From: Candidatus Heimdallarchaeum aukensis
Lineage (GTDB): Archaea; Asgardarchaeota; Heimdallarchaeia; Heimdallarchaeales; Heimdallarchaeaceae
Length of the DNA: 64,000 nt
Direction of reading: 5' to 3'
Assembly: GCA_021513695.1 (NCBI GenBank)
Contig: CP084166.1
Span: forward strand, 128,001 to 192,000
Below, one piece after another: positions 19,292 to 58,550 of the stretch (the stretch's first letter is position 1; each line of letters begins with the position of its first letter). Under the pieces are notes generated by a model. That model was given only the letters and a program-made list of their open reading frames with translations, did not search any database and had not been told where the DNA came from. A program made the translations under genes and the position numbers.

Positions 19292-20254
19292 TCATTTTTC
19301 TTCTTCATCATCATTTAACAAGCTACTGAAGGCTGCTCTTAATTCATTTTGAAGTGATTCTTTCATTTGCTTTGTAGATTTTTTAGGAGTAGCTGGTGTA
19401 GGCTCTGATACTGGGCTTACTTCATCTGATTCTTCCATTCGTTGAGATCTTCTTTGTTGAGCAGCTTTAACTTCTGAAAGTAAAGCTTGTTGTGGAGAAA
19501 GAGGTCTTGATGCTTGTGCAGCTTGTTCTCTCTCTTTTTTATGAGCATCAGGATCAACTTTCTTTAATTTTGCTTTTGCTTCCAGAATTGCTGAAGCTGT
19601 TGGTCCACCTAATGGTCCCACACCTCCCCCACCCATAGGTCCTGGGCCAGGAGCTGGTGATTGTTGCACTGGAGCTTTTTGTAATTTTGCTTTTGCTTCC
19701 AGAATTGCTGAAGCTGTTGGTCCACCTAATGGTCCCACACCTCCCCCACCCATAGGTCCTGGGCTAGGTGCTGGTGATTGTTGCACTGGAGCTTTTTGTA
19801 AAGATTTGGCAGCATTAGCTATCTCGCTAGCAAATCCTGGAGAACCTGGCCCTGCTCCTAGATTAGGAGCTGGTGCAGGAGCTCCACTTAAATTTGGTGT
19901 TGGAGCTGGTCCCCCTAGATTAGGCGCAGAAGTCGCTCCACCCCCTATATTTGGCGCTGGAGCTGGTCCAGAACTCAATTTAGGTGCAGAAGGTATCGAG
20001 GGACTTGGAGTACTTCCACCTATACTTGGAGCACTAGGCATTCCCATTCCTCCTCCAGGTGCTCCACCTAATTTATTCTCCAAAGCTGTTATTCGCGCAT
20101 CTAATTCGTTAATAGCATCTTCAATTCTTTCTGTAGATTTGATCATAATACTTCCAAAGTTTTCAAGAAGTCTAGTTAATTTTGCAATCGCAGTTTTCGT
20201 AGGGGAAGAACCTTCAGATAATAAATTGTCTAGGTACTCATCAATTGACATCAA
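19292..20254 (-). CDS. low-complexity Pro/Gly/Ala-rich protein with an N-terminal coiled coil and two 39-aa repeats
   Basis: After an N-terminal helix there is a long PAPAP/GGP tract. Two repeats follow: AKAKLQKAPVQQSPAP..GPMGGGGVGPLGGPTASAILE. The C-terminal tail is acidic. Confidence 0.45.
   Translation of the reverse strand: MMSIDEYLDNLLSEGSSPTKTAIAKLTRLLENFGSIMIKSTERIEDAINELDARITALENKLGGAPGGGMGMPSAPSIGGSTPSPSIPSAPKLSSGPAPAPNIGGGATSAPNLGGPAPTPNLSGAPAPAPNLGAGPGSPGFASEIANAAKSLQKAPVQQSPAPSPGPMGGGGVGPLGGPTASAILEAKAKLQKAPVQQSPAPGPGPMGGGGVGPLGGPTASAILEAKAKLKKVDPDAHKKEREQAAQASRPLSPQQALLSEVKAAQQRRSQRMEESDEVSPVSEPTPATPKKSTKQMKESLQNELRAAFSSLLNDDEEEK
19566..19799 (+). repeat. 117-bp direct repeat, 2 units, inside the Pro/Gly-rich gene
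   Basis: aattttgcttttgcttccagaattgctgaagctgttggtccacctaatggtcccacacctcccccacccataggtcctggg... occurs twice in tandem, with 2-3 mismatches near the 3' end of the unit. Confidence 0.85.
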
Positions 20255-20335
20255 ATATCAAAATATACTAGACTGAAAACTATAAAAAGACTTTGTTAAT
20301 GCATAATGAAAAAGAAAAATTAATTGTTCTTGAAA

Positions 20336-21364
20336 TTAGAACGCCTCTGAAAGAACTTTAACTACTTTTTCAATATCTTCTCTGCTTATATTGAAGTGAG
20401 TTACAAAACGAATCAATTGCTCTCCCATTTGTGTTACTAAAACCCCTTGTTTTTCTAGTTTTTTGCTTAAGGTATTTGCATTATATTCTGAGTCTGAAAG
20501 ATCAATAATTACAATGTTTGTATCCACAGGTTTGACAATTATATTTTCCTTTTCTCGAAGAACTTTTTCAATCATTTTAGCGTGATCATGATCTTCTTTT
20601 AATCTATCAATCATATGGTTAAGGGCATATATTCCTGGTGCTGCTATAACTCCTGCCTGTCTCATTCCCCCTCCTACTCTTTTTCTGTTTTTTCTGGCTT
20701 TTTCAATAAACTCTTCTGTTCCCACGATTATAGAACCAATTGGACAAGCAAGTCCTTTACTTAAACAAATCTGTATTGAATCTGCATGTTCTACTAGTTT
20801 TGCTGGAGAAATATCTAACGCTACTGAAGCGTTAAATAATCTAGCTCCATCAATATGTACAGGAACTTCATAATCATGTGCTAGTTTTGCTATTTCGTCC
20901 ATATTCGATTTAGGAATAACTCTTCCTCCCCCTCTGTTGTGAGTATTTTCAATACATACTAATTTAGGATCTGCGTAATGAACATTATATGGTCTAGAAA
21001 GAATTGCTTCAATATCTTTAGGATCCATTAACCCATTGTCTCCTCTTATTAAATAAGGTAAAGCTCCAACTATTGATGCAATTCCACCAGCTTCATACAA
21101 ATATATATGGCTCTCTGCTTCTAAAATTATTCCTTCTCCTTTATTTAGATGAGTCATCTCTGAAACTAGATTTCCTTGTGTACCACTTGTAACTAGTAAG
21201 CCTGCTTCTTTACCTAGTATTTTTGCTGCTAAAACCTCTAATTCTTGTACTGTAGGGTCTTCTCTCCAAACATCATCGCCTAATTTAGCTGTTAAAATTG
21301 TTTCTAACATCTCTTTTGGAGGTAAAGTTAATGTATCAGAACGCAAATCAATTACTTTTTTCAT
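20336..21364 (-). CDS. low-specificity L-threonine aldolase (PLP-dependent)
   Basis: The N-terminus DLRSDTLTLPPKEMLE...GDDVWREDPTV is characteristic of the threonine aldolase (LtaE/GLY1) family. 342 aa. Confidence 0.7.
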   Translation of the reverse strand: MKKVIDLRSDTLTLPPKEMLETILTAKLGDDVWREDPTVQELEVLAAKILGKEAGLLVTSGTQGNLVSEMTHLNKGEGIILEAESHIYLYEAGGIASIVGALPYLIRGDNGLMDPKDIEAILSRPYNVHYADPKLVCIENTHNRGGGRVIPKSNMDEIAKLAHDYEVPVHIDGARLFNASVALDISPAKLVEHADSIQICLSKGLACPIGSIIVGTEEFIEKARKNRKRVGGGMRQAGVIAAPGIYALNHMIDRLKEDHDHAKMIEKVLREKENIIVKPVDTNIVIIDLSDSEYNANTLSKKLEKQGVLVTQMGEQLIRFVTHFNISREDIEKVVKVLSEAF

Positions 21365-41208: not shown

Positions 41209-42174
41209 CTATTCTCCCAAATTTTTTCTCCAGTTGTAATCTTCTTTTGCTATCAGTGTAACAGCAGAATCTTCTTTTGAATCGATGATTTTTAATTCTG
41301 TATTTTCTATAATCTTCTTTGAAAATTCTAGTATTTTTGGGTACCTTGGCATTATTTCATAAGGTAACCTTTTTCTTGCGTCTCCAACACTCATAAAACC
41401 TTTTACTTCTAGAAAATGAGCTTCTGATCTTAAAAATAATTCAGCAAAAGCTTCTGGTTCGACTAAATTGTAGTTTTCATCTACTAAAGTTAATCTTATA
41501 ACTTTTCTAGTGTTAAGCGAAGGAAGTAATTCAATTGTTTCCATCACTTTGTTCCATAGATTTGAAAAAGAAGGACGAGCAGTTTTTTTGAAACTTTCTT
41601 CAGTAGGGGCAATTAGAGTAACATAGAGTTGAGTAGGAAGAGGGTCAAGTTTCTTCAACATTTCAGGATTAGTGCCATTAGTTACTAGAAAAGTAGTCAT
41701 ATCACGATTGTGGAACTCTTGAATTAATTCTGGTAACAAAGGATAGAAAGTTGGTTCTCCACTTAAAGAAATTGCAGCATGTTTTGGATTGTAAGCTTCT
41801 TCATATAATCTTGGTTCTACTTTTGGATGATTTTTGAATCCTGCAATTAGTCTTCTTTGATGTTCTATCATTTGATCAATAATATATTCCGGTTTGTCAA
41901 CTTTTCCTCTCATTAATTCTTTGTTGTACCATGATGCACTTCTCCAGCAAAAAACACATTTTAGATTACACCATATTGTTGCAGGAGTACATTGAAGACA
42001 ACGGTGAGAAGCTATTCCGTAAAATTGTTGTTTATAGCAAAAACCTTCTCCTTTTAACGCGTGCTTTAACCAGGTGCAAATTTTTACTGCAGAGTGATTA
42101 CCAGCTATTCTGTACTGTTGTTTTTCTAGTTTGTCTTTCAATTTTGGAGGAATAATGTTTGTATTTAAACTCAT
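41209..42174 (-). CDS. taw1: tRNA 4-demethylwyosine synthase (Taw1/TYW1), radical SAM
   Basis: HSAVKICTWLKHALKGEGFCYKQQFYGIASHRCLQCTPATIWCNLKCVFCWRSASW matches archaeal Taw1, including the CxxxCxxC cluster. Confidence 0.8.
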   Translation of the reverse strand: MSLNTNIIPPKLKDKLEKQQYRIAGNHSAVKICTWLKHALKGEGFCYKQQFYGIASHRCLQCTPATIWCNLKCVFCWRSASWYNKELMRGKVDKPEYIIDQMIEHQRRLIAGFKNHPKVEPRLYEEAYNPKHAAISLSGEPTFYPLLPELIQEFHNRDMTTFLVTNGTNPEMLKKLDPLPTQLYVTLIAPTEESFKKTARPSFSNLWNKVMETIELLPSLNTRKVIRLTLVDENYNLVEPEAFAELFLRSEAHFLEVKGFMSVGDARKRLPYEIMPRYPKILEFSKKIIENTELKIIDSKEDSAVTLIAKEDYNWRKNLGE

Positions 42175-42301
42175 TAGATTTACTTATTTTTCTTTATTTT
42201 TAGACTTTATCTTTATTGAAATTTTTTTTGATTAAATTTACTATAAAATTAACAAAGGAAAACAATAGATTAAAATATTTAAAAAATTAAAATATACTGA
42301 T

Positions 42302-43417
42302 ATGGTTAGTATTAAAAAAGTTCTCAAGCAACTAGAAGATTCTGATCCTATAGTTCGAAGAGATGCAATACTTACTCTTGGAGAACTAAAAGACGAAAAA
42401 GGGGTTGATCCTTTAATTAAGTGTGTTCAACAAGAAATAAAAGAAAATAGAATCACCGCTATTGTTGCACTTTCAGATATTGGAGATCATAGGGCTATTG
42501 AAATATTAATCTACTGTTTAATGGATGATGATGAAGAAATAAGACTTGCTGCTGCTCGAGCTTTAGGACGATTTACTTCTCCTCAAGCTATCACTACTTT
42601 ACTTGTTTCATTAAAAAAAGACCCAAGTGTGAGAGTTAAGAGTCGTGCAGCTCTATCTTTAGGGAGTATTGGTTCAGAACTGCCTGTTGAAGAATTACTT
42701 AAAGAATCTAAATTAGAACACCCAACCACTCTTCTTTATTCTATAAATTCTGCTTTGACAATGATAGCAAAGAAAAATGGTTATAGTTCAGTAGATGAAC
42801 TTGTTCAAAAAATAAGGGCTAAAAAGGCAGAAGTAGATGAGAAAACACCAGAGCATAAACAAATTCAGGAGAAAGAAGAGCTCGAATCTTTTCCTCGTTT
42901 ATATGACTACATTAGAAAATATGTAGCTCGAGAACTAGAAGGGGTACAAACAGTATTAAGTATTAACTCAGATGAAAAGACTGCATCAAAGAAAATAGCT
43001 GATATTTTAGCAGAAAAATTCTGGAAATTTGCTGAATGGATCGGAAAAAGAATGGGACATAAATTAACTGAATATCAATCTGATTTGCTCTGGCAGATGA
43101 TATGGGATACATCAAGGCCAATTAGAAATGAAATTTACCAAATGATAAGAGATCATCGCTCAGAATTAGAGGAATTAAATCGATTCCAGAAATGGCTCAA
43201 CAAAATAGAAGAACAAAAAGAAGAAGAAATCGTTAAAGATATTGAAAGAAGCAGACCTAAACCCATTATTCAAACTTCAAATAATGTGAAAAAAGACGAA
43301 GCAGAGACAATTAGAGCTGCAGATTTGGCAAGAAGTATTTCTTCAAATCTTGAAGAAATAATGGGCAAATATTCTAGTTGGAAAACAAGAGAGTTAAAAG
43401 ATGAAGAAGATTATTAA
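42302..43417 (+). CDS. HEAT (PBS-lyase-type) repeat protein
   Basis: Repeats: DPIVRRDAILTLGELKDEKGVDPLIKCVQQ / NRITAIVALSDIGDHRAIEILIYCL / DEEIRLAAARALGRF / VRVKSRAALSLGSIGS. Confidence 0.55.
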   Translation: MVSIKKVLKQLEDSDPIVRRDAILTLGELKDEKGVDPLIKCVQQEIKENRITAIVALSDIGDHRAIEILIYCLMDDDEEIRLAAARALGRFTSPQAITTLLVSLKKDPSVRVKSRAALSLGSIGSELPVEELLKESKLEHPTTLLYSINSALTMIAKKNGYSSVDELVQKIRAKKAEVDEKTPEHKQIQEKEELESFPRLYDYIRKYVARELEGVQTVLSINSDEKTASKKIADILAEKFWKFAEWIGKRMGHKLTEYQSDLLWQMIWDTSRPIRNEIYQMIRDHRSELEELNRFQKWLNKIEEQKEEEIVKDIERSRPKPIIQTSNNVKKDEAETIRAADLARSISSNLEEIMGKYSSWKTRELKDEEDY

Positions 43418-43569
43418 GCTTCTTTAAAATTCTGAAAATTGCCAAAAAAATTTTTCTAAAACAATTTTTTATTATTTATTAATTTTCGTAATACCTTGCT
43501 AATACTAAATCCTTCACGACAAAAACATATTTATTTCTGTTTACAATTGTGATATAGTAGATATCTAAG

Positions 43570-43779
43570 ATGGAATATGGGGTTAATATGAAAAAAAAGC
43601 TGATTACATTTAAAGTAACAGAAGCTATGATGAAATGGATAGCAGAAATGATGGAAAAGGGGAATTATAAAAATAGAACAGAATTAATTGTAGATGCTCT
43701 TAGAGAGTTTCTCATCCAAGAAAGAATGGTTGAAGATCAGGAAGAACTAGAAGCAATTTTTGAAAGAATTGATGAATAG
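43570..43779 (+). CDS. ribbon-helix-helix (CopG-like) DNA-binding protein
   Basis: 69 aa. KLITFKVTEAMMKWI is a beta-strand followed by two helices (NRTELIVDALREFL), the typical RHH layout. Confidence 0.45.
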   Translation: MEYGVNMKKKLITFKVTEAMMKWIAEMMEKGNYKNRTELIVDALREFLIQERMVEDQEELEAIFERIDE

Positions 43780-43821
43780 TTCTCTTATAACTCCTTCTGT
43801 ATTTCTGTTATTTTAGCCCTA

Positions 43822-44629
43822 TTATTCAAACCAATACATAGATGTTTTTTCGAAACATTCTTTTGTTAAATTTTGTGAAAGCTTAAAATAATTAGTAACT
43901 TTTTTATCTATCCTTTTTCTGAAAATCACTGCTTGATTAAAATCTCTATCTGATTTTATCCAGTTTTTTGTAATTTCTTTCATTGTTACCCAGATATCAG
44001 AGGAAGGAAAAGGGATTGGTATCTCTCTAAAAAGGTTTGAAGTTATGTCTCTTACAATAAAACTTTCTACTATAAATTGAACAAATGAGGAGGAAAGATA
44101 ACCAAACAACCCATAAAGGTCTATTTGTTCATCAGGAATTATGATGTCAAAAATGTCGTTTACGTAATAGCCTTCTAGGTCCAAACCAATAAAATACTTC
44201 TTTCCTCTATTTCTACGGACTATTTTTGGTTTTTCAAATATTTGATGATCTCCTGGTGCTCCTAATACTTTTCTGTCATAAATTATTTTTTCTTTTCCTG
44301 GAAAAACTTCAAAGTTTATGACACCTTCTTTGTAATTATTTGAAAAGATATTGTGTCTTACTATTTCTACAGATTTAATTTCATTTGAATATTTCTTTTT
44401 TTTAATATACTTCTCTTTGTATCTCTTTGTTATCGTTAATCCTCGTCTAATAAAAGAATGTTCTTTTAATTTAGGGTAATTATTCAGGATAGTGCTGATT
44501 TCCTTTTGACTTTCAGAACTAAAATTTGAAAAAAGAAAAAGAGGAGGGAAAATGAAGCTATAGTCTATTTTGTGTTCATGATTATCTTTTCTTTTATGAA
44601 ATTTAATGTAATTACTTTCGTTTTTTAAA
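43822..44629 (-). pseudogene. 3' fragment (about 269 codons) of the N6-adenine DNA methyltransferase gene, truncated at the tandem-duplication junction
   Basis: Nucleotide-identical to 47170..47977. The copy is cut at 44629/44630, where it abuts internal Taw1 sequence. Confidence 0.6.
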
Positions 44630-45524
44630 AATCGATGATTTTTAATTCTGTATTTTCTATAATCTTCTTTGAAAATTCTAGTATTTTTGGGTACCTTGGC
44701 ATTATTTCATAAGGTAACCTTTTTCTTGCGTCTCCAACACTCATAAAACCTTTTACTTCTAGAAAATGAGCTTCTGATCTTAAAAATAATTCAGCAAAAG
44801 CTTCTGGTTCGACTAAATTGTAGTTTTCATCTACTAAAGTTAATCTTATAACTTTTCTAGTGTTAAGCGAAGGAAGTAATTCAATTGTTTCCATCACTTT
44901 GTTCCATAGATTTGAAAAAGAAGGACGAGCAGTTTTTTTGAAACTTTCTTCAGTAGGGGCAATTAGAGTAACATAGAGTTGAGTAGGAAGAGGGTCAAGT
45001 TTCTTCAACATTTCAGGATTAGTGCCATTAGTTACTAGAAAAGTAGTCATATCACGATTGTGGAACTCTTGAATTAATTCTGGTAACAAAGGATAGAAAG
45101 TTGGTTCTCCACTTAAAGAAATTGCAGCATGTTTTGGATTGTAAGCTTCTTCATATAATCTTGGTTCTACTTTTGGATGATTTTTGAATCCTGCAATTAG
45201 TCTTCTTTGATGTTCTATCATTTGATCAATAATATATTCCGGTTTGTCAACTTTTCCTCTCATTAATTCTTTGTTGTACCATGATGCACTTCTCCAGCAA
45301 AAAACACATTTTAGATTACACCATATTGTTGCAGGAGTACATTGAAGACAACGGTGAGAAGCTATTCCGTAAAATTGTTGTTTATAGCAAAAACCTTCTC
45401 CTTTTAACGCGTGCTTTAACCAGGTGCAAATTTTTACTGCAGAGTGATTACCAGCTATTCTGTACTGTTGTTTTTCTAGTTTGTCTTTCAATTTTGGAGG
45501 AATAATGTTTGTATTTAAACTCAT
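44625..45524 (-). CDS. taw1: Taw1/TYW1 second copy; the last ~22 codons are replaced by junction sequence
   Basis: Identical to 41280..42174 up to the duplication junction. The C-terminus reads ...KIIDF* instead of ...KIIDSKEDSAVTLIAKEDYNWRKNLGE*. Confidence 0.6.
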   Translation of the reverse strand: MSLNTNIIPPKLKDKLEKQQYRIAGNHSAVKICTWLKHALKGEGFCYKQQFYGIASHRCLQCTPATIWCNLKCVFCWRSASWYNKELMRGKVDKPEYIIDQMIEHQRRLIAGFKNHPKVEPRLYEEAYNPKHAAISLSGEPTFYPLLPELIQEFHNRDMTTFLVTNGTNPEMLKKLDPLPTQLYVTLIAPTEESFKKTARPSFSNLWNKVMETIELLPSLNTRKVIRLTLVDENYNLVEPEAFAELFLRSEAHFLEVKGFMSVGDARKRLPYEIMPRYPKILEFSKKIIENTELKIIDF

Positions 45525-45649
45525 TAGATTTACTTATTTTCTTTATTTTTAGACTTTATCTTTATTGAAATTTTTTTGATTAAATTTACTATAAAATTAA
45601 CAAAGGAAAACAATAGATTAAAATATTTAAAAAATTAAAATATACTGAT

Positions 45650-46765
45650 ATGGTTAGTATTAAAAAAGTTCTCAAGCAACTAGAAGATTCTGATCCTATA
45701 GTTCGAAGAGATGCAATACTTACTCTTGGAGAACTAAAAGACGAAAAAGGGGTTGATCCTTTAATTAAGTGTGTTCAACAAGAAATAAAAGAAAATAGAA
45801 TCACCGCTATTGTTGCACTTTCAGATATTGGAGATCATAGGGCTATTGAAATATTAATCTACTGTTTAATGGATGATGATGAAGAAATAAGACTTGCTGC
45901 TGCTCGAGCTTTAGGACGATTTACTTCTCCTCAAGCTATCACTACTTTACTTGTTTCATTAAAAAAAGACCCAAGTGTGAGAGTTAAGAGTCGTGCAGCT
46001 CTATCTTTAGGGAGTATTGGTTCAGAACTGCCTGTTGAAGAATTACTTAAAGAATCTAAATTAGAACACCCAACCACTCTTCTTTATTCTATAAATTCTG
46101 CTTTGACAATGATAGCAAAGAAAAATGGTTATAGTTCAGTAGATGAACTTGTTCAAAAAATAAGGGCTAAAAAGGCAGAAGTAGATGAGAAAACACCAGA
46201 GCATAAACAAATTCAGGAGAAAGAAGAGCTCGAATCTTTTCCTCGTTTATATGACTACATTAGAAAATATGTAGCTCGAGAACTAGAAGGGGTACAAACA
46301 GTATTAAGTATTAACTCAGATGAAAAGACTGCATCAAAGAAAATAGCTGATATTTTAGCAGAAAAATTCTGGAAATTTGCTGAATGGATCGGAAAAAGAA
46401 TGGGACATAAATTAACTGAATATCAATCTGATTTGCTCTGGCAGATGATATGGGATACATCAAGGCCAATTAGAAATGAAATTTACCAAATGATAAGAGA
46501 TCATCGCTCAGAATTAGAGGAATTAAATCGATTCCAGAAATGGCTCAACAAAATAGAAGAACAAAAAGAAGAAGAAATCGTTAAAGATATTGAAAGAAGC
46601 AGACCTAAACCCATTATTCAAACTTCAAATAATGTGAAAAAAGACGAAGCAGAGACAATTAGAGCTGCAGATTTGGCAAGAAGTATTTCTTCAAATCTTG
46701 AAGAAATAATGGGCAAATATTCTAGTTGGAAAACAAGAGAGTTAAAAGATGAAGAAGATTATTAA
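45650..46765 (+). CDS. HEAT repeat protein (duplicate of 42302..43417)
   Basis: Identical protein sequence. Confidence 0.55.
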   Translation: MVSIKKVLKQLEDSDPIVRRDAILTLGELKDEKGVDPLIKCVQQEIKENRITAIVALSDIGDHRAIEILIYCLMDDDEEIRLAAARALGRFTSPQAITTLLVSLKKDPSVRVKSRAALSLGSIGSELPVEELLKESKLEHPTTLLYSINSALTMIAKKNGYSSVDELVQKIRAKKAEVDEKTPEHKQIQEKEELESFPRLYDYIRKYVARELEGVQTVLSINSDEKTASKKIADILAEKFWKFAEWIGKRMGHKLTEYQSDLLWQMIWDTSRPIRNEIYQMIRDHRSELEELNRFQKWLNKIEEQKEEEIVKDIERSRPKPIIQTSNNVKKDEAETIRAADLARSISSNLEEIMGKYSSWKTRELKDEEDY

Positions 46766-46917
46766 GCTTCTTTAAAATTCTGAAAATTGCCAAAAAAATT
46801 TTTCTAAAACAATTTTTTATTATTTATTAATTTTCGTAATACCTTGCTAATACTAAATCCTTCACGACAAAAACATATTTATTTCTGTTTACAATTGTGA
46901 TATAGTAGATATCTAAG

Positions 46918-47127
46918 ATGGAATATGGGGTTAATATGAAAAAAAAGCTGATTACATTTAAAGTAACAGAAGCTATGATGAAATGGATAGCAGAAATGAT
47001 GGAAAAGGGGAATTATAAAAATAGAACAGAATTAATTGTAGATGCTCTTAGAGAGTTTCTCATCCAAGAAAGAATGGTTGAAGATCAGGAAGAACTAGAA
47101 GCAATTTTTGAAAGAATTGATGAATAG
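46918..47127 (+). CDS. ribbon-helix-helix protein (duplicate of 43570..43779)
   Basis: Identical protein sequence. Confidence 0.45.
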   Translation: MEYGVNMKKKLITFKVTEAMMKWIAEMMEKGNYKNRTELIVDALREFLIQERMVEDQEELEAIFERIDE

Positions 47128-47169
47128 TTCTCTTATAACTCCTTCTGTATTTCTGTTATTTTAGCCCTA

Positions 47170-49161
47170 TTATTCAAACCAATACATAGATGTTTTTTCG
47201 AAACATTCTTTTGTTAAATTTTGTGAAAGCTTAAAATAATTAGTAACTTTTTTATCTATCCTTTTTCTGAAAATCACTGCTTGATTAAAATCTCTATCTG
47301 ATTTTATCCAGTTTTTTGTAATTTCTTTCATTGTTACCCAGATATCAGAGGAAGGAAAAGGGATTGGTATCTCTCTAAAAAGGTTTGAAGTTATGTCTCT
47401 TACAATAAAACTTTCTACTATAAATTGAACAAATGAGGAGGAAAGATAACCAAACAACCCATAAAGGTCTATTTGTTCATCAGGAATTATGATGTCAAAA
47501 ATGTCGTTTACGTAATAGCCTTCTAGGTCCAAACCAATAAAATACTTCTTTCCTCTATTTCTACGGACTATTTTTGGTTTTTCAAATATTTGATGATCTC
47601 CTGGTGCTCCTAATACTTTTCTGTCATAAATTATTTTTTCTTTTCCTGGAAAAACTTCAAAGTTTATGACACCTTCTTTGTAATTATTTGAAAAGATATT
47701 GTGTCTTACTATTTCTACAGATTTAATTTCATTTGAATATTTCTTTTTTTTAATATACTTCTCTTTGTATCTCTTTGTTATCGTTAATCCTCGTCTAATA
47801 AAAGAATGTTCTTTTAATTTAGGGTAATTATTCAGGATAGTGCTGATTTCCTTTTGACTTTCAGAACTAAAATTTGAAAAAAGAAAAAGAGGAGGGAAAA
47901 TGAAGCTATAGTCTATTTTGTGTTCATGATTATCTTTTCTTTTATGAAATTTAATGTAATTACTTTCGTTTTTTAAATCCATTGATAACAAAAAGAATTC
48001 ATTGGAAACGTCTTTAAAGGAATAATCTAAATCTGTGTAAATTTCTACATCATATCTATTATCTTTGAGGTGTTTTCTCCATTTCTTGCCATAAGTATCA
48101 GTTATGATACCTGAAGGTAATATTAATCCTACTTTCTCTTTGGATAAACTTTCTGCAATGATCAAAAAAGGTAGAGCAAAATTATATTTTCCAAAGATTC
48201 TATTTTTATAAGGTTCTCTCTTTAAGAATTCTTTATATCTATTATTTATTTTTTTATATTCTATCCACGGTGGATTTCCAATAACAAAATCAAAAAATTT
48301 TTTCTGAAGACTTAAACTTTCATCAAAAAATATTTCAGGCAAATCAACAAAAAAGCTAAATTTGGATAGAGAAGGATATTTCTTCGATATTTCATCTCTT
48401 TTTGTTAAACATTCTTTTATATCTTGAAAAGAAATTTCTTTTTTACCAAATATCACTTCTCTTCTTTTTTCACGAAGTATCGCTAAAAGTTTCAAAAAAG
48501 TTGTATTTTTTCTTTCTGACATTTGCTTTATTATTCTTTCATCATAACCAAGAATGCTATCTCCGTATTTTGAGATTAAAGGAAGTAATTTTCTTTTTCT
48601 ATTATCTTGTAACATGAAAAAGAGTTTGAAAACTTGAAATTCATAAATAAATGGATCAACTTCAACTGAATATGGCATAATCTCTTGTTTTTCAAAAGCT
48701 GGGTAGAGAAAATCTCCTATTCCTGAAGAAATATCGATAACTGTTTTAGTTTTTTTAGAATTGTTACTCAAAATATCTAATAAATCATATACCTTTTTAA
48801 CAAGAATCCTATTAGTAAAATATTGACCTGTTAATCTCGTTTTATCTTGAATAAGTGATAAAATATTAACTTCATTTATTGTCTTGATTATATTTTTGAT
48901 TTGTTCAAAAACCCAAACTGGTAACTTTTTTTCTAGAACTCTGAGTTTTTCTAACGATAGAAGTATTTGCTTATCATCTTGATTTAGATTAACCAGATTT
49001 ATTAACGAAGTTTTTTGTTGATTTTGTTCAGATGAAAAGGATGAAGAATTGTAAATAAAGTAAAACTTTACTATCATCGATTTTAATTCATTAACTGAAA
49101 CTTTGTACCTACTAGCCTTTTTCTGAATTCTACTATGTAGATTTTCCTCTTTTATTTCCAT
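47170..49161 (-). CDS. N6-adenine (amino) DNA methyltransferase, gamma-class Eco57I/TaqI-like
   Basis: Motif X-like GQYFTNRILVKKV; motif I VIDISSGIGDFL; motif IV FVIGNPPWIEY; motif downstream of IV, GLILPSGIITDTYGKKWRKHL. The C-terminal ~330 aa are a probable target-recognition region. Confidence 0.7.
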   Translation of the reverse strand: MEIKEENLHSRIQKKASRYKVSVNELKSMIVKFYFIYNSSSFSSEQNQQKTSLINLVNLNQDDKQILLSLEKLRVLEKKLPVWVFEQIKNIIKTINEVNILSLIQDKTRLTGQYFTNRILVKKVYDLLDILSNNSKKTKTVIDISSGIGDFLYPAFEKQEIMPYSVEVDPFIYEFQVFKLFFMLQDNRKRKLLPLISKYGDSILGYDERIIKQMSERKNTTFLKLLAILREKRREVIFGKKEISFQDIKECLTKRDEISKKYPSLSKFSFFVDLPEIFFDESLSLQKKFFDFVIGNPPWIEYKKINNRYKEFLKREPYKNRIFGKYNFALPFLIIAESLSKEKVGLILPSGIITDTYGKKWRKHLKDNRYDVEIYTDLDYSFKDVSNEFFLLSMDLKNESNYIKFHKRKDNHEHKIDYSFIFPPLFLFSNFSSESQKEISTILNNYPKLKEHSFIRRGLTITKRYKEKYIKKKKYSNEIKSVEIVRHNIFSNNYKEGVINFEVFPGKEKIIYDRKVLGAPGDHQIFEKPKIVRRNRGKKYFIGLDLEGYYVNDIFDIIIPDEQIDLYGLFGYLSSSFVQFIVESFIVRDITSNLFREIPIPFPSSDIWVTMKEITKNWIKSDRDFNQAVIFRKRIDKKVTNYFKLSQNLTKECFEKTSMYWFE

Positions 49162-54797: not shown

Positions 54798-55625
54798 ATG
54801 ACATCTAATTTTGAGTATTTTAAAATATTAAAGCCTGTCTTAGTCACTGGAGGAATGATATTAAACCTCATGAGAGGAAAAGTAACTAATCAACCAAAAG
54901 AAAGTGATCTCCCTCCAGAATTGGTTAAAGAAAGCTCTACTGCTCACACAGAAATTGACGACTTTGTACAAGATATAGCCCTCGAAATTCTCCATTCTTC
55001 TTTACCAGATATTGGAATAAATGCAGAAGAAGTTACAGATAGAGTAAAATGGTTTAAACAAGACAAAACAGGACTCTGTTTTCATCTAGATCCCTTAGAT
55101 GGGACGCTGGCATATACAAAAAATAGAGAAGATTTTGCTATTGGTGCAGCTTTATCTGACAAATTAAAATTTATAGCCAGTGGGATATACTTTCCTGCAG
55201 TTGATAGACTTTTTTACGCAGAAAAAGGAAAAGGTGTTCTAGTTATTAATAGTTTAGGAGAAAAGATTTCATTCACTAGACCTTCCTCACCAGAAAAAAA
55301 ATATGCGCAAAAAAGATGTGATGAGTATGTTCCCATTCTAGAAAAATTAGCTTTTACAAAGCTAGATTCAATGAGTGCTCATCATAGTATGATTTCTATC
55401 CTAGAAGGAAAAGCTGCAATTCAGATGTATCATATGGCAAGCCCTCATGATTTTGGAATTCCTCAACTAATTCTTGAAGAAGCAGGAGGAATATGTACTG
55501 ATCTTGAAGGGAAACCAATAAAATATGACCCAGACTTTAATAGAGTGCCCTACTTCCTCGCTTTCTTTGATACTAAAATCAAGGACTTATTTTTCAAAGA
55601 AATAGAGAGAAGTAAAACATTGTAG
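54798..55625 (+). CDS. inositol monophosphatase/fructose-1,6-bisphosphatase family protein
   Basis: FHLDPLDGTLAY is the IMPase DPxDGT motif. An upstream ...EEV.DRVKW region is also present. Confidence 0.65.
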   Translation: MTSNFEYFKILKPVLVTGGMILNLMRGKVTNQPKESDLPPELVKESSTAHTEIDDFVQDIALEILHSSLPDIGINAEEVTDRVKWFKQDKTGLCFHLDPLDGTLAYTKNREDFAIGAALSDKLKFIASGIYFPAVDRLFYAEKGKGVLVINSLGEKISFTRPSSPEKKYAQKRCDEYVPILEKLAFTKLDSMSAHHSMISILEGKAAIQMYHMASPHDFGIPQLILEEAGGICTDLEGKPIKYDPDFNRVPYFLAFFDTKIKDLFFKEIERSKTL

Positions 55626-55809
55626 ATGACTTATTTTTTTACGTAAGTTTGTAAAAATTGAGGGAGAATTGAATGTAAAAAAAGAAAAAGGAAAGGAGGA
55701 AGGGAGTGGAAAGGAAAATGATGGCTTTTTATAGGGAAAAAAAGTATAAGTAAGTAAGAAGAGAAGAAGAAAACCAAAGAAAGAGAAAATAGAAGGAGAA
55801 AAGAAAGAG

Positions 55810-57255
55810 ATGGAGGCCGTCGTCAAAACCTTGAAAGTGAGAATAAAGAATGAGGTATTGACGACAAGGAAGAAGGAAAGGTTAAGGAGAATAACAGGAA
55901 GAGATACGAGAATAATAGAAAAGTATGTGAGAATAATACACCAAAATAGAAAAAAAATATGTATAAGAACTAAAAAAGGGAAAATAAGAGTACATAGAGG
56001 AAAATTAGACGATTTAACATTAACTACTTCAAGAGTAAAAGAAGAAGAGAGGAGAAAGACTTTTCCTCACGACCTTAAGAAAATGTTCCCCTATTGTTCT
56101 CACAATGAGTTTCAAGAGTGTAGAGATATAGCTGTACAACTATATAAACAATGGTATAGACCTAACACCACTCGTCCTCCAATAAAGAGAGCGAGAAGAC
56201 AACTAATTAATGGAAAGAGGTTCATCCTCATCCATCTACCAAAAGAAAAGAATAACACTCTCACTCGTTGGTGGGTAGGAATAAGAGACTCGTTAGACAC
56301 TTGGAAAAGAAATACCCCCTATCATCAGAAGTTGTGGTTACCTTTAGAGATGAGCGATTTCCACCAGAAAGAGTTAAAAAAAGGACAGATAAAAGGTCTA
56401 GAACTGCGATACAAACGTTCTACAAGTGAGTGGTGGGTATATTTTCAACTAAAAGTTCTTCCTCCTTCTTCTTTTCTAAGCGATAATTCCTCTTCTTCTC
56501 TTCCTCCAGCTGTGCTGGGAATAGATCTGGGGATAAACATTCCTGCTGCAGGAGTGTTACTAACCCCTAAAAAGAAGTTAACTATTAAACAGATAAAATT
56601 CTAGTATACCAAACAGTGGAATATAATCAATCATAGATATAAACTCAAACTTTCCCGTCTTCAGAGGAAAGCGGCTTTAAACGACCAGTCGGGTAAAAAA
56701 CACCAAGTTTATCGTTTTCTTGGTCTTCTTCGTCGGAGATATAGAAACGTTAAACTGGCGTATATCCACCAATTTGTAAACGATGTTGTGCGGACAATAG
56801 AGACTTATGCACAAGTGTATGACCTTTTCGTCGTCGTAGGTTATCCTAAACATATCCGTGAAGAGAAAGGAAAAGGGAAAGTTTCTCGTCAATTTCGCAG
56901 AAAACTTCATCAGTGGAACTATGCTCTTGTTCTTGGTCTTCTCCGTCGGGCATTAATATTAAGAGGTTTCGAATCTCACCGTATTCTCACTTTAGACGAA
57001 AGAGGAACATCCTCTCACTGTTCTCGTTGTGGAACGAAAGTCTCTCGCCCTGTCAGAGGGTTAATCTCTTGTTCTTCTTGTAATTACACTTTCCACTCTG
57101 ACCTCACAGGAGCAATGAATATCGCTCGAAGGTTCCTTGGTCATCTTTTCCGTCCTCGTGCAACAACTATTACTGACCACCTTACTGGCTATAAATTCAG
57201 TCTCACCCATTTCACTGTTTGCCAAGGGCTCAGCCATTGGTTGCAGTCCCAGTAG
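55810..57255 (+). pseudogene. tnpB: tnpB (RuvC-like RNA-guided nuclease of the IS605 family) interrupted by a single in-frame TAG at 56602-56604
   Basis: ORF 55810..56604 and ORF 56788..57255 are in the same frame, with an open frame from 56605. Total length 1446 nt = 482 codons. RuvC-I is LGIDLGINIPAAG; the zinc finger is CSRCG...CSSCN; RuvC-III is FHSDLTGAMNIARR. The N-terminus is basic. Confidence 0.75.
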
Positions 57256-57430
57256 ACAAAAAAAGAAACTAATTACTCTTATCTTTGAGGATAGTTATCT
57301 TTTTTTGTCTCTCGTGGAGCGAAGAAAAAGTTCCTTTCTTCTTTATGATTCCCACGATTCGTGTATGATGTCTGTCTCAACCCCTTCTTTCATTGTATGC
57401 TCTGGTTGAGTTCGCAAGAGATCAAACTCT
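57256..57430 (+). ncRNA. candidate TnpB-associated guide RNA (omega/reRNA) scaffold at the IS right end
   Basis: The region immediately 3' of tnpB is GC-richer and carries two short hairpins (57309-57355 and about 57376-57410). This is by analogy with IS605 right-end RNAs and is not verified. Confidence 0.3.
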
Positions 57431-57527
57431 CTTCTAGTTTTTTCTCTTGAAAGACTGAGTGCGAAAAACTTACGTAAAAAAGTAAATCATGAAAAAGAGT
57501 TAAAATCTTCTTTGTTTTTTTTTTGAT

Positions 57528-58550
57528 ATGAAATGGATTTATAAATTTCTAATTAGATTTCTTATTTTTACTCTTCTTTTCGGAATATTTATTGCGATTT
57601 CTGTAAAATTTGCATATGTTGAGCCATCAGAATACATATATTCAGATAATGATTGGGATAATTTCTCTTATACTCCAGAATATAATCATTCTCAGTGGAA
57701 TGTTTTGCTTGATGCTCATTCTCACACTTATTATTCGGATGGTTATCTTTCTCCTAGACAGAATATCCTTTGGCATATCGCTATGGGCTTTAATGCTATG
57801 GTTCTTACTGATCATAATACGTTTGATGGTGTTGAAGAGATATTAAAATTAGCAAGAGAAGAGTTTAATGACTCCATTAAAGTTTTTAGAGGTATGGAAT
57901 GGACTACTGATAGAAGTCATCTAAATATTATTCTTCCTCCTGATGTTACTCCTGAAGATTATGAAAAACTGAAAACACATAAGAGTTATTCTTACACTCC
58001 TACAGATGAAGAATTTAAGAGTATAATTGAAGAAACACATTCTATTGGAGGGTTGGTGATTGTTAACCATATTCCTTGGTCAGAAGAGTTTTGTCACGAT
58101 CAGCCAACAAGAGAGCAATTTCTTGAGTGGGGTGTAGATTATATAGAAATAATTAATGAAGAAACTTATGACAAAGTTTCTGAAGATTTTTGCATAGAAA
58201 ATAATCTGGGAATAATTACAGGAACAGATATGCACAAACCAGAACCAGTTTATGCATGGACAACACTAAATGTTTCTGAATTTTCAGAGGAAACAATCTT
58301 TAATGAACTAAAAGCAAAAAGAACAGGATACATTTTTACTGGAGCAGCTTCTCCTTATCCTATTGAACACAGACATAACCCTGCTTATTCTATTTTTTAT
58401 CCTTTTATCAAAATGGGCGAAGTATTCAGAGATGTTTATTCAAGTCCATATTTTGCAGAATACTTGACTCCCATATTTCTCTATCCTTACTTAATCTTCT
58501 TTTCTGTAGAACTAACCAAATTTGTGATTTATAAAAAGAGAAAGAAATAA
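57528..58550 (+). CDS. PHP-domain (polymerase/histidinol-phosphatase-like) phosphoesterase, membrane-anchored
   Basis: N-terminal TM/signal. LDAHSHTYYSDGYLSP is PHP motif I. Further His/Asp blocks are present (VLTDHNTFDG, GTDMHKPEP). There is a C-terminal TM helix. Confidence 0.6.
   Translation: MKWIYKFLIRFLIFTLLFGIFIAISVKFAYVEPSEYIYSDNDWDNFSYTPEYNHSQWNVLLDAHSHTYYSDGYLSPRQNILWHIAMGFNAMVLTDHNTFDGVEEILKLAREEFNDSIKVFRGMEWTTDRSHLNIILPPDVTPEDYEKLKTHKSYSYTPTDEEFKSIIEETHSIGGLVIVNHIPWSEEFCHDQPTREQFLEWGVDYIEIINEETYDKVSEDFCIENNLGIITGTDMHKPEPVYAWTTLNVSEFSEETIFNELKAKRTGYIFTGAASPYPIEHRHNPAYSIFYPFIKMGEVFRDVYSSPYFAEYLTPIFLYPYLIFFSVELTKFVIYKKRKK

Follow-up and report, generated by a model that had tools for sequence, protein, structure and literature searches.

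How did a tnpB-like gene come to lie between two housekeeping-type neighbours in an Asgard archaeon, and where does the DNA that travels with it begin and end? Cas12 and the eukaryotic Fanzor proteins both descend from TnpB, and no archaea are more closely related to eukaryotes than the Asgard group. The stretch analysed here (the window, 64,000 nt) belongs to Candidatus Heimdallarchaeum aukensis, as its N-terminal open reading frame (ORF) of the locus is 100 % identical to K9W45_00690. Between an inositol-monophosphatase (IMPase) gene and a PHP-domain gene it holds a single reading frame (Table 1), which an original prediction made from the letters alone had assigned to a foreign-composition IS605/IS1341-type element. 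We propose, with a probability of about 0.72, that the segment 55625/6 to 57490/1 belongs to a multi-copy family of non-autonomous insertion sequences in Heimdallarchaeaceae, one that combines inverted repeats, a TnpB protein, an omega-RNA-like scaffold and a VCATG target and is moved in trans.

Copies, ends and target site

The family is represented by no fewer than 19 independent insertions, so that the element ends are exactly defined, and the search for further copies suggested by the original prediction was thereby answered. The multi-copy alignment places the mobile unit between 55625/6 and 57490/1, that is 8–10 nt further out on each side than the bounds 55634–57481 given before. Similarity starts at the left CATG and stops at ..AAATCATG or ..AAAAAGTAAATCATG on the right, and outside these limits the flanks are unrelated; among the 13 loci of the family in H. 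endolithica it likewise begins at the left repeat. More copies are present in metagenomes and metagenome-assembled genomes (MAGs), and intact homologues of 481–489 aa with 82–99 % identity occur in Heimdallarchaeaceae.

The two flanking strings that had been described as reverse complements of each other are so indeed, being the inner 16–17 nt of longer arms of 25 nt. In the region no other inverted repeat comes close to this 25-nt pair, the rest reaching at most 80–88 % over shorter arms. The copies form two subfamilies, A, which includes the window copy (left TTTTTTACGTAA, right TTACGTAAAAAA), and B (left TTTTTGCG(T/A)AA, right TTCGCAAAAA). Their arms changed jointly, reading TTTTTTACG / CGTAAAAAA in A and TTTTTGCG / CGCAAAAA in B, which amounts to one substituted base and a T/A run that is shorter by one. 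Because both arms changed together, the inverted repeat is selected as such and represents a genuine terminal repeat. The right arm is practically invariant and the left arm variable at positions 5–10; the invariance on the right fits a second constraint imposed by the overlapping RNA described below. A family with 44 % identical TnpB (L021, L025, L220, L221) carries its own repeat of about 27 nt and different sequence, with the termini TA/CATGA.T... on the left and ...AACTCAT/N on the right (slash, element boundary). The same build of its ends shows that inverted-repeat ends and the CATG junction are clade-wide.

For the junction statistics, 19 independent left and 16 right junctions were tabulated. 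The central AT is invariant in all of them. The outermost base is C in 18 cases and G in one on the left, and G in 12, A in three and T in one on the right; since it varies between copies, it behaves as flank, and in the window the G at 55625 also completes the IMPase stop codon TAG. Immediately before the left CATG stands a purine in 12/12 subfamily-A sites and C in 7/7 subfamily-B sites, and T in 0/19, in spite of a T content of 35 % in the window; before the right CAT, T is found without exception. The +1 base to the right of the element shows no preference. From this difference between R/C on the left and T on the right, the target is read as asymmetric, with VCATG as its motif. The conserved motif of junction and target is, on the evidence of these alignments, CATG and not TTAC. 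The arrangement offered originally, a TTAC-type target next to subterminal hairpins, finds no support, given that the repeat co-varies in both arms and that no conserved same-strand hairpins were seen at both element ends.

An empty site of the window locus was not found in the sister MAG (L014) or the Logan assemblies checked (L018–L020), each of which either contains the insertion or breaks off some 30 nt into the repeat; around the nearest IMPase orthologues (74 % identity) the synteny differs. The empty site was deduced from four H. endolithica copies that interrupt genes, the joined flanks of which restore frames of 375–565 codons only when one or four of the eight junction bases are kept. 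With 4 nt kept, the copy L009 reads ..YTGDIRFHGRKSDQ.. (GDIRFHGRKS) and aligns gap-free to ..YTGDLRLHGHNREE.. (GDLRLHGHNR) of PDB 2az4, including the His-Gly encoded by the junction, and the copy L006 aligns gap-free to ABC exporters across the junction. These two alignments indicate that the empty site retains one CATG. The search for empty sites that had been recommended thus yielded two reconstructed sites and none for the window locus itself. An empty site is predicted to read ACATTGTAGATGAAAAAGAGTT, and a circle junction ..AAAAAGTAAATCATGAC.. or ..AAATCATGACTTATTTT.

The palindromic octamer TTACGTAA, around which the original prediction had centred the repeat, occurs only in subfamily A; B has TTGCGWAA / TTCGCAA, and its arms are still complementary. 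The window contains five occurrences versus 0.59 expected. The three sites other than those of the repeat comprise two in a 3.35-kb duplicated segment and one that coincides with an ORF end. As a target or regulatory motif the octamer was rejected, since subfamily B lacks it and the remaining occurrences in the window fall in duplicated or coding sequence. The duplicated segment is a near-100 % identical tandem segmental duplication at window positions 41280–47980 with a period of about 3349 nt, in which a 371-aa HEAT-repeat gene and a Tyw1-like radical-SAM gene are doubled and which extends into or beside an Eco57I-like methylase ORF; either a true recent event or an assembly artefact could lie behind it. 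Viral contigs scanned for the repeat returned chance matches only, and the extra repeat-like matches L009:131 and L010:2113 were inspected and dismissed.

TnpB, the 3' RNA region and decay of the window copy

The only ORF between the element ends is tnpB, as had been recognised from the outset: an IS605-OrfB/TnpB homologue lies inside a mobile element with IS1341-like gene content. Its product matches Pfam PF07282 (Cas12f1-like TNB domain) with 37.4 bits against a cut-off of 26.3. D239, C404/C407/C421/C424, D431 and E397 are invariant in 45 homologues. Gly344 aligns with the MED motif of AsCas12f, and E397 sits three residues before the TS..C motif; the RuvC-II site is rearranged and the catalytic set complete in spite of it. 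Rearrangements of RuvC-II are known from several TnpB clades (PMC10691335). An AlphaFold2 model (pLDDT 82.5) compared to the PDB with Foldseek matched Cas12f, ISDra2 TnpB, ISFba1 TnpB and mimivirus Fanzor2 at E values of 1e-14 to 1e-11 over about 460 columns, nearly the full length of the model, and the protein is predicted to have a TnpB/Cas12f fold.

The polypurine tract of about 150 nt reported upstream of the gene proved to be real and forms a leader, the length of which differs from copy to copy. Conserved in it is the TATA-like archaeal motif CTTTTTATAGGG at 55725–55736 (TTTATA at 55728–55733), which is also conserved in the relatives with 44 % identical TnpB and may act as the tnpB promoter. 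A GGAG stands about 10 nt before the tnpB ATG.

Downstream of the gene, the structured right end noted before was well founded: the single-sequence minimum free energy has a z-score of −3.6, and 0/200 shuffles fold as well. An RNAalifold consensus from 13–14 copies contains seven helices with 68 pairs, in which 97 % of the cells are paired compared to 44–55 % in slid controls. Compensatory pairs with both sides changed number 10, versus 1–4 in the controls, and none of 500 shuffles reached the observed values; the covariation stems mainly from two subfamilies. Helix 2 pairs GUGGAG(C) at 57314–57320 with AACUUAC at 57467–57473, the inner part of the right repeat, and closes a multi-helix domain (consensus GUGGAGU with ACUU(U/C)(A/G)C). 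In the first hairpin, the 3' strand is the seven-T run 57300–57306; a run of 6–7 T between this hairpin and the main scaffold is invariant in all copies. No Rfam family matched the 3' region at the gathering threshold or at E<=1. Taken together, fold and covariation argue for an omega-RNA-like scaffold that reaches the right end.

A feature absent from the original prediction is the in-frame TAG of the window tnpB. The sister MAG shows the same locus order IMPase – tnpB – PHP with an intact gene (P0001). Of 1867 positions, 8 differ between window and sister copy; each of these falls within the ORF, and seven, the TAG among them, are non-synonymous, whereas the repeats, the leader with its promoter and the 3' RNA region contain no difference. 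The changes of the window copy include W265stop and V85F, residue 85 being an invariant column in the 45 homologues. The TAG, the other damaging changes and the Trp of the homologues together identify the window tnpB as a young pseudogene and not as a recoded gene; for the same reasons, a pyrrolysine or otherwise recoded TAG was rejected. For the annotation of the genome this means that K9W45_00690 and the neighbouring ORF each represent half of a single tnpB pseudogene within an insertion sequence. P0009 of H. aukensis was not on record.

Several further observations concern the history of individual copies. The window element differs from the L014 copy by 0.43 %, and the 3 kb of flank on each side by 1.1–1.5 %; the lower divergence of the element may reflect gene conversion among copies, or chance. 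L003:3837–5697 (H. endolithica CP084167, near 3.32 Mb) is a chimera, its left end being of subfamily A and its right end of subfamily B. To the right it borders on mid-gene sequence of a P-type ATPase (..CALVLSTPV..GVLIKGG..) that the left flank does not continue, which suggests recombination between two copies together with a chromosomal rearrangement. L023:1216–2920 is a degenerate copy with 83 % identical TnpB that lacks the left repeat, and its similarity in the 3' RNA ends right after GTCTCTCGTGGAGTG, so that it is truncated or disrupted. L103 and L104 (positions 1–985) share the same element and right flank, and their left flanks differ by indel blocks of about 28–77 nt, which is strain-level variation beside the insertion.

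The lineage is small: 1.84 billion representatives contain 27 clusters at E<=1e-30, and 88 when the limit is relaxed to E<=1e-10. All homologue matches with a named source are Asgard MAGs, except one partial sequence labelled Aenigmatarchaeota. A plasmid collection gave no match, and the family is not described in the main text or supplements of Wu et al. 2022 (PMC8813620).

Table 1. Features of the element and its surroundings, in positions of the window.
Feature	Position	Strand	Remarks
IMPase (inositol-monophosphatase) gene	54798–55625		left neighbour of element
Left junction tetranucleotide GATG	55625–55628	+	other insertions: CATG in 18 of 19 (junction tables); outermost base varies among copies
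Left terminal inverted repeat, ATGACTTATTTTTTTACGTAAGTTT	55626–55650	+	25 nt, 92 % complementary to right arm
Polypurine leader	55651–55809	+	85 % purine; length varies between copies
tnpB frame	55810–57255	+	481 codons, interrupted by in-frame TAG
RuvC-I Asp239 codon	56524–56526	+	
Nonsense codon TAG	56602–56604	+	TGG (Trp265) in sister copy and all intact homologues
Gly344 at canonical RuvC-II Glu position	56839–56841	+	
Alternative invariant Glu397	56998–57000	+	
CxxC...CxxC zinc finger	57019–57081	+	
RuvC-III Asp431	57100–57102	+	
First long hairpin	57254–57311	+	A-run/T-run pairing directly after stop codon; apical part variable
Omega-RNA-like (putative) structured 3' region	57256–57491	+	seven helices; about 235 nt
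Right terminal inverted repeat, AAACTTACGTAAAAAAGTAAATCAT	57466–57490	+	nearly invariant among copies; inside 3' RNA region
Right junction tetranucleotide CATG	57488–57491	+	junction tables
Flank between element and PHP start codon	57492–57527	+	36 nt, read directly from sequence
PHP-domain gene	57528–58550		right neighbour of element

The right end lies close upstream of the PHP start at 57528, as had been pointed out, with a distance of 36 nt and not about 50 bp. This short flank contains a TATA-like TTAAAA at 57500–57505, about 26 nt before the PHP ATG, which might function as the PHP promoter, and by analogy with other TnpB elements the flank may double as guide-encoding DNA. An influence of the element on the PHP promoter, as first suggested, is conceivable.

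A foreign origin had been argued from a GC content of 42 % inside DNA of 28 %. These values were corrected to 37.7 % for the element versus 30.2 % in the rest of the window (z = 3.5), 42 % being reached solely by the C-terminal half of the reading frame. The clearer compositional difference lies in GC3 (GC at third codon positions), with 0.34 in tnpB versus 0.20–0.22 in the neighbouring genes. The highest GC content in the window, 38.7 %, is found at 19401–21268, a housekeeping stretch with a beta-eliminating lyase gene and a 320-aa ORF without clear family. As this stretch is even GC-richer than the element, about 38 % GC in H. aukensis is not exclusive to mobile DNA. The composition of the element can thus be called somewhat atypical, and composition alone is no proof of foreign origin.

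Mobilisation in trans and its alternatives

In the element, imperfect repeats of about 25 bp enclose the polypurine leader, the single TnpB gene and an omega-RNA-like scaffold of about 235 nt that runs through the right repeat. Insertion takes place at VCATG, giving CATG at both junctions and one CATG in the empty site. As no transposase is encoded in the element and none was found beside any of about 95 relatives, we infer that a recombinase encoded elsewhere must recognise the repeats. The search for such a neighbour took in the window, 13 H. endolithica loci, 79 metagenome loci and 12 contig look-ups. Candidates for the trans-acting role are DDE enzymes, Cas1-like enzymes of Asgard archaea and serine recombinases with their crossover at the central AT. 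The RNA would continue into the right flank, which would serve as guide in analogy to the studied TnpB systems, and the TnpB of an intact copy would cut the rejoined empty site with a target-adjacent motif of about VCATG. The empty site would present R/C-CATG before the flank that matches the guide, while the occupied junction presents T-CATG; TCATG would escape cutting, which would favour retention of the element. This RNA-guided, VCATG-dependent cleavage is a prediction from the junction statistics. The window copy would not produce TnpB; as its ends, promoter and RNA are intact, other copies could still mobilise and serve it in trans. The literature describes solo TnpBs moved in trans, DDE-linked TnpBs with symmetrical or inverted terminal repeats, and Asgard-specific TnpB groups (PMC10691335).

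Several points weigh against this proposal, among them the lack of a partner transposase beside the relatives surveyed. With 83.4 bits, the protein stays under the curated cut-off of 100 of the NCBIfam model guided_TnpB. The junctions agree equally well with a 2-bp duplication of AT, a 4-bp duplication of CATG or a duplication-free insertion between CAT and G. Moreover, an asymmetric target is unusual for a transposase that binds symmetric repeats and would be explained solely by the presumed TnpB motif. In the consensus fold, the last 15–18 nt of the element are unpaired, which leaves the boundary between scaffold and guide unfixed. Oligo-T is an archaeal transcription terminator signal, and the seven-T run at 57300–57306 could stop transcription before the scaffold is made.

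Two explanations involve a different transposase. In a classic IS200/IS605 element of the IS1341 group, a Y1 HUH TnpA encoded elsewhere would move one strand and insert it 3' of VCAT, followed by G; the right end would finish with the look-alike TCAT, and the inverted repeat would be incidental. The tnpB-only gene content, the asymmetric left-side target (compare TTAC of IS608) and the single CATG of the empty site, which suits insertion without duplication, are all in line with this, and so are the variable first bases past the left junction, a trait of IS605-type ends (PMC3119063). Against it speak the inverted repeat of 22–27 nt, kept by two-arm changes in two subfamilies, and the repeat of different sequence in the 44 %-identity family. 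Subfamily B lacks the palindrome, same-strand hairpins conserved at both ends were not seen, the left and right ends share nothing as direct repeats, and no Y1 gene stands beside any of the roughly 95 relatives, so that we consider this explanation quite improbable. An IS607-like element appears unlikely as well, if slightly less so. Here the repeats would be the element-side half-sites of a serine recombinase with its crossover at the central AT of CATG; a circle carrying ..AAATC-AT-G.. would integrate into C-AT-G and generate CATG at both junctions. The palindromic 4-nt junction with invariant central AT and variable outer bases and the one CATG left in the empty site would follow directly, TnpB is often linked to serine recombinases (PMC10691335), and the mechanism would be one particular form of the trans-acting partner assumed in our own proposal. 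Nevertheless, no serine recombinase gene was found beside any relative, the ends of TnpB elements with serine transposases are reported to be asymmetric (PMC10691335), and a palindromic crossover dinucleotide would not fix the orientation, yet the target is asymmetric.

A further explanation dispenses with a transposase. The element could be self-contained and RNA-guided, with the constant last 15–18 nt of the RNA, that is the outer right repeat, as guide; since its ends are inverted repeats, TnpB would be led to both of them and cut the element out itself. The closing helix indeed stops 15–18 nt before the element end and leaves the tail unpaired in the consensus fold, the subfamily-B left repeat matches this tail at 14–15/15 positions, and no transposase was found near the relatives. 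The subfamily-A left repeat, on the other hand, mismatches the tail at about 6/18 positions, and a pseudoknot between the tail and the invariant AUGAUU (about 57343–57348) is another possibility, one in which both partners are invariant and no covariation signal can arise. The model also lacks an integration step, and in every TnpB system studied so far, to our knowledge, the sequence past the right end serves as guide. We regard it as a long shot. Only marginally better placed, and still very improbable, is the wider idea that the Heimdallarchaeial TnpB clade is a transposon type of its own without separate transposase, in which the constant RNA tail directs TnpB to both ends for excision and the asymmetric motif separates empty from occupied sites.

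Under the favoured proposal of an inverted-repeat element moved in trans, what emerges is a small, Asgard-restricted TnpB lineage residing in inverted-repeat elements with a VCATG target, an RNA structure and a rearranged catalytic site. It would provide a compact candidate nuclease together with a predicted target-adjacent motif and an RNA scaffold. The logic of TnpB, distinguishing empty from occupied site by a single base, would here be readable from junction statistics.

Relation to known TnpB systems

The IS200/IS605 family is defined partly by the absence of terminal inverted repeats. As the element has such repeats, it is not a canonical member of the family. The original assignment to the IS605/IS1341 type therefore holds for the tnpB-only content and the omega-RNA-like right end and does not hold for the ends. 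Elements of the IS1341 group with ISDra2-type TnpB and omega RNA resemble it in having as sole gene a TnpB nuclease with RuvC D/E/D and zinc finger, a structured RNA from the gene to the right end, multiple copies, a dependence on a transposase in trans, presumed for the present element, and a short left-side target motif. Unlike them, the element described here has true terminal inverted repeats of 22–27 bp and no paired subterminal hairpins, CATG at both junctions, and a TnpB with Gly in place of the RuvC-II Glu and an alternative Glu just before the zinc finger. This TnpB scores below the NCBIfam TnpB cut-off and is about 70–80 residues longer than ISDra2 TnpB. From the IS607 family it differs in that no serine recombinase TnpA was found beside tnpB in any locus.

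The TnpB transposons with DDE (IS630-type) transposases described by Altae-Tran et al. 2023 (PMC10691335) share the symmetrical ends and a tnpB 3' end within about 250 bp of the element end, and solo copies are thought to move in trans in that study as well. They differ in that no DDE or helix-turn-helix (HTH) gene is found beside the relatives studied here, in the CATG with central AT in place of a TA duplication, and in the restriction of the present lineage to Asgard archaea. With regard to the RuvC-II site, a parallel is given by the RIIr TnpB clades (for example RIIr-5, Glu to Gly; PMC10691335), which likewise combine Gly at the canonical Glu position, here Gly344, with an alternative invariant Glu; the likeness is one of residue pattern.

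The nearest wider relatives are the aCas1-associated Asgard TnpBs (Cas1H-Asgard-1/2; PMC10691335), which have 30–35 % protein identity and Asgard hosts and in which the tnpB–RNA module is bracketed by an inverted repeat GAGTGAAC ... GTTCACTC. In that clade conservation runs past the inverted repeat, so that the repeat is not the end of the mobile unit there. The GTTCACTCA motif downstream of tnpB is found only in these 30–35 %-identity relatives; the element and its close copies have neither this motif nor an adjacent giant or Cas1-like gene. Among the relatives L031–L071 (e.g. L058:135–5672, L036:803–5725, L047:1423–5736), 15 metagenome loci have a divergent giant ORF of 1400–1845 aa directly outside the GAGTGAAC...GTTCACTC repeat. 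These giant ORFs share invariant residues among themselves and may be the 'aCas1' proteins of the literature; tested for a Cas1 relationship, they had no Pfam, NCBIfam or PDB profile match.

Fanzor, finally, occurs in eukaryotes and viruses, whereas the present element has an archaeal host, and in neither sequence nor fold does its protein stand nearer to Fanzor than to TnpB or Cas12f, with Fanzor2 at rank 17 of the structural matches. The parallel lies in the architecture, since both would combine an RNA-guided, TnpB-like nuclease with an inverted-repeat transposon in which the RNA overlaps the right repeat.

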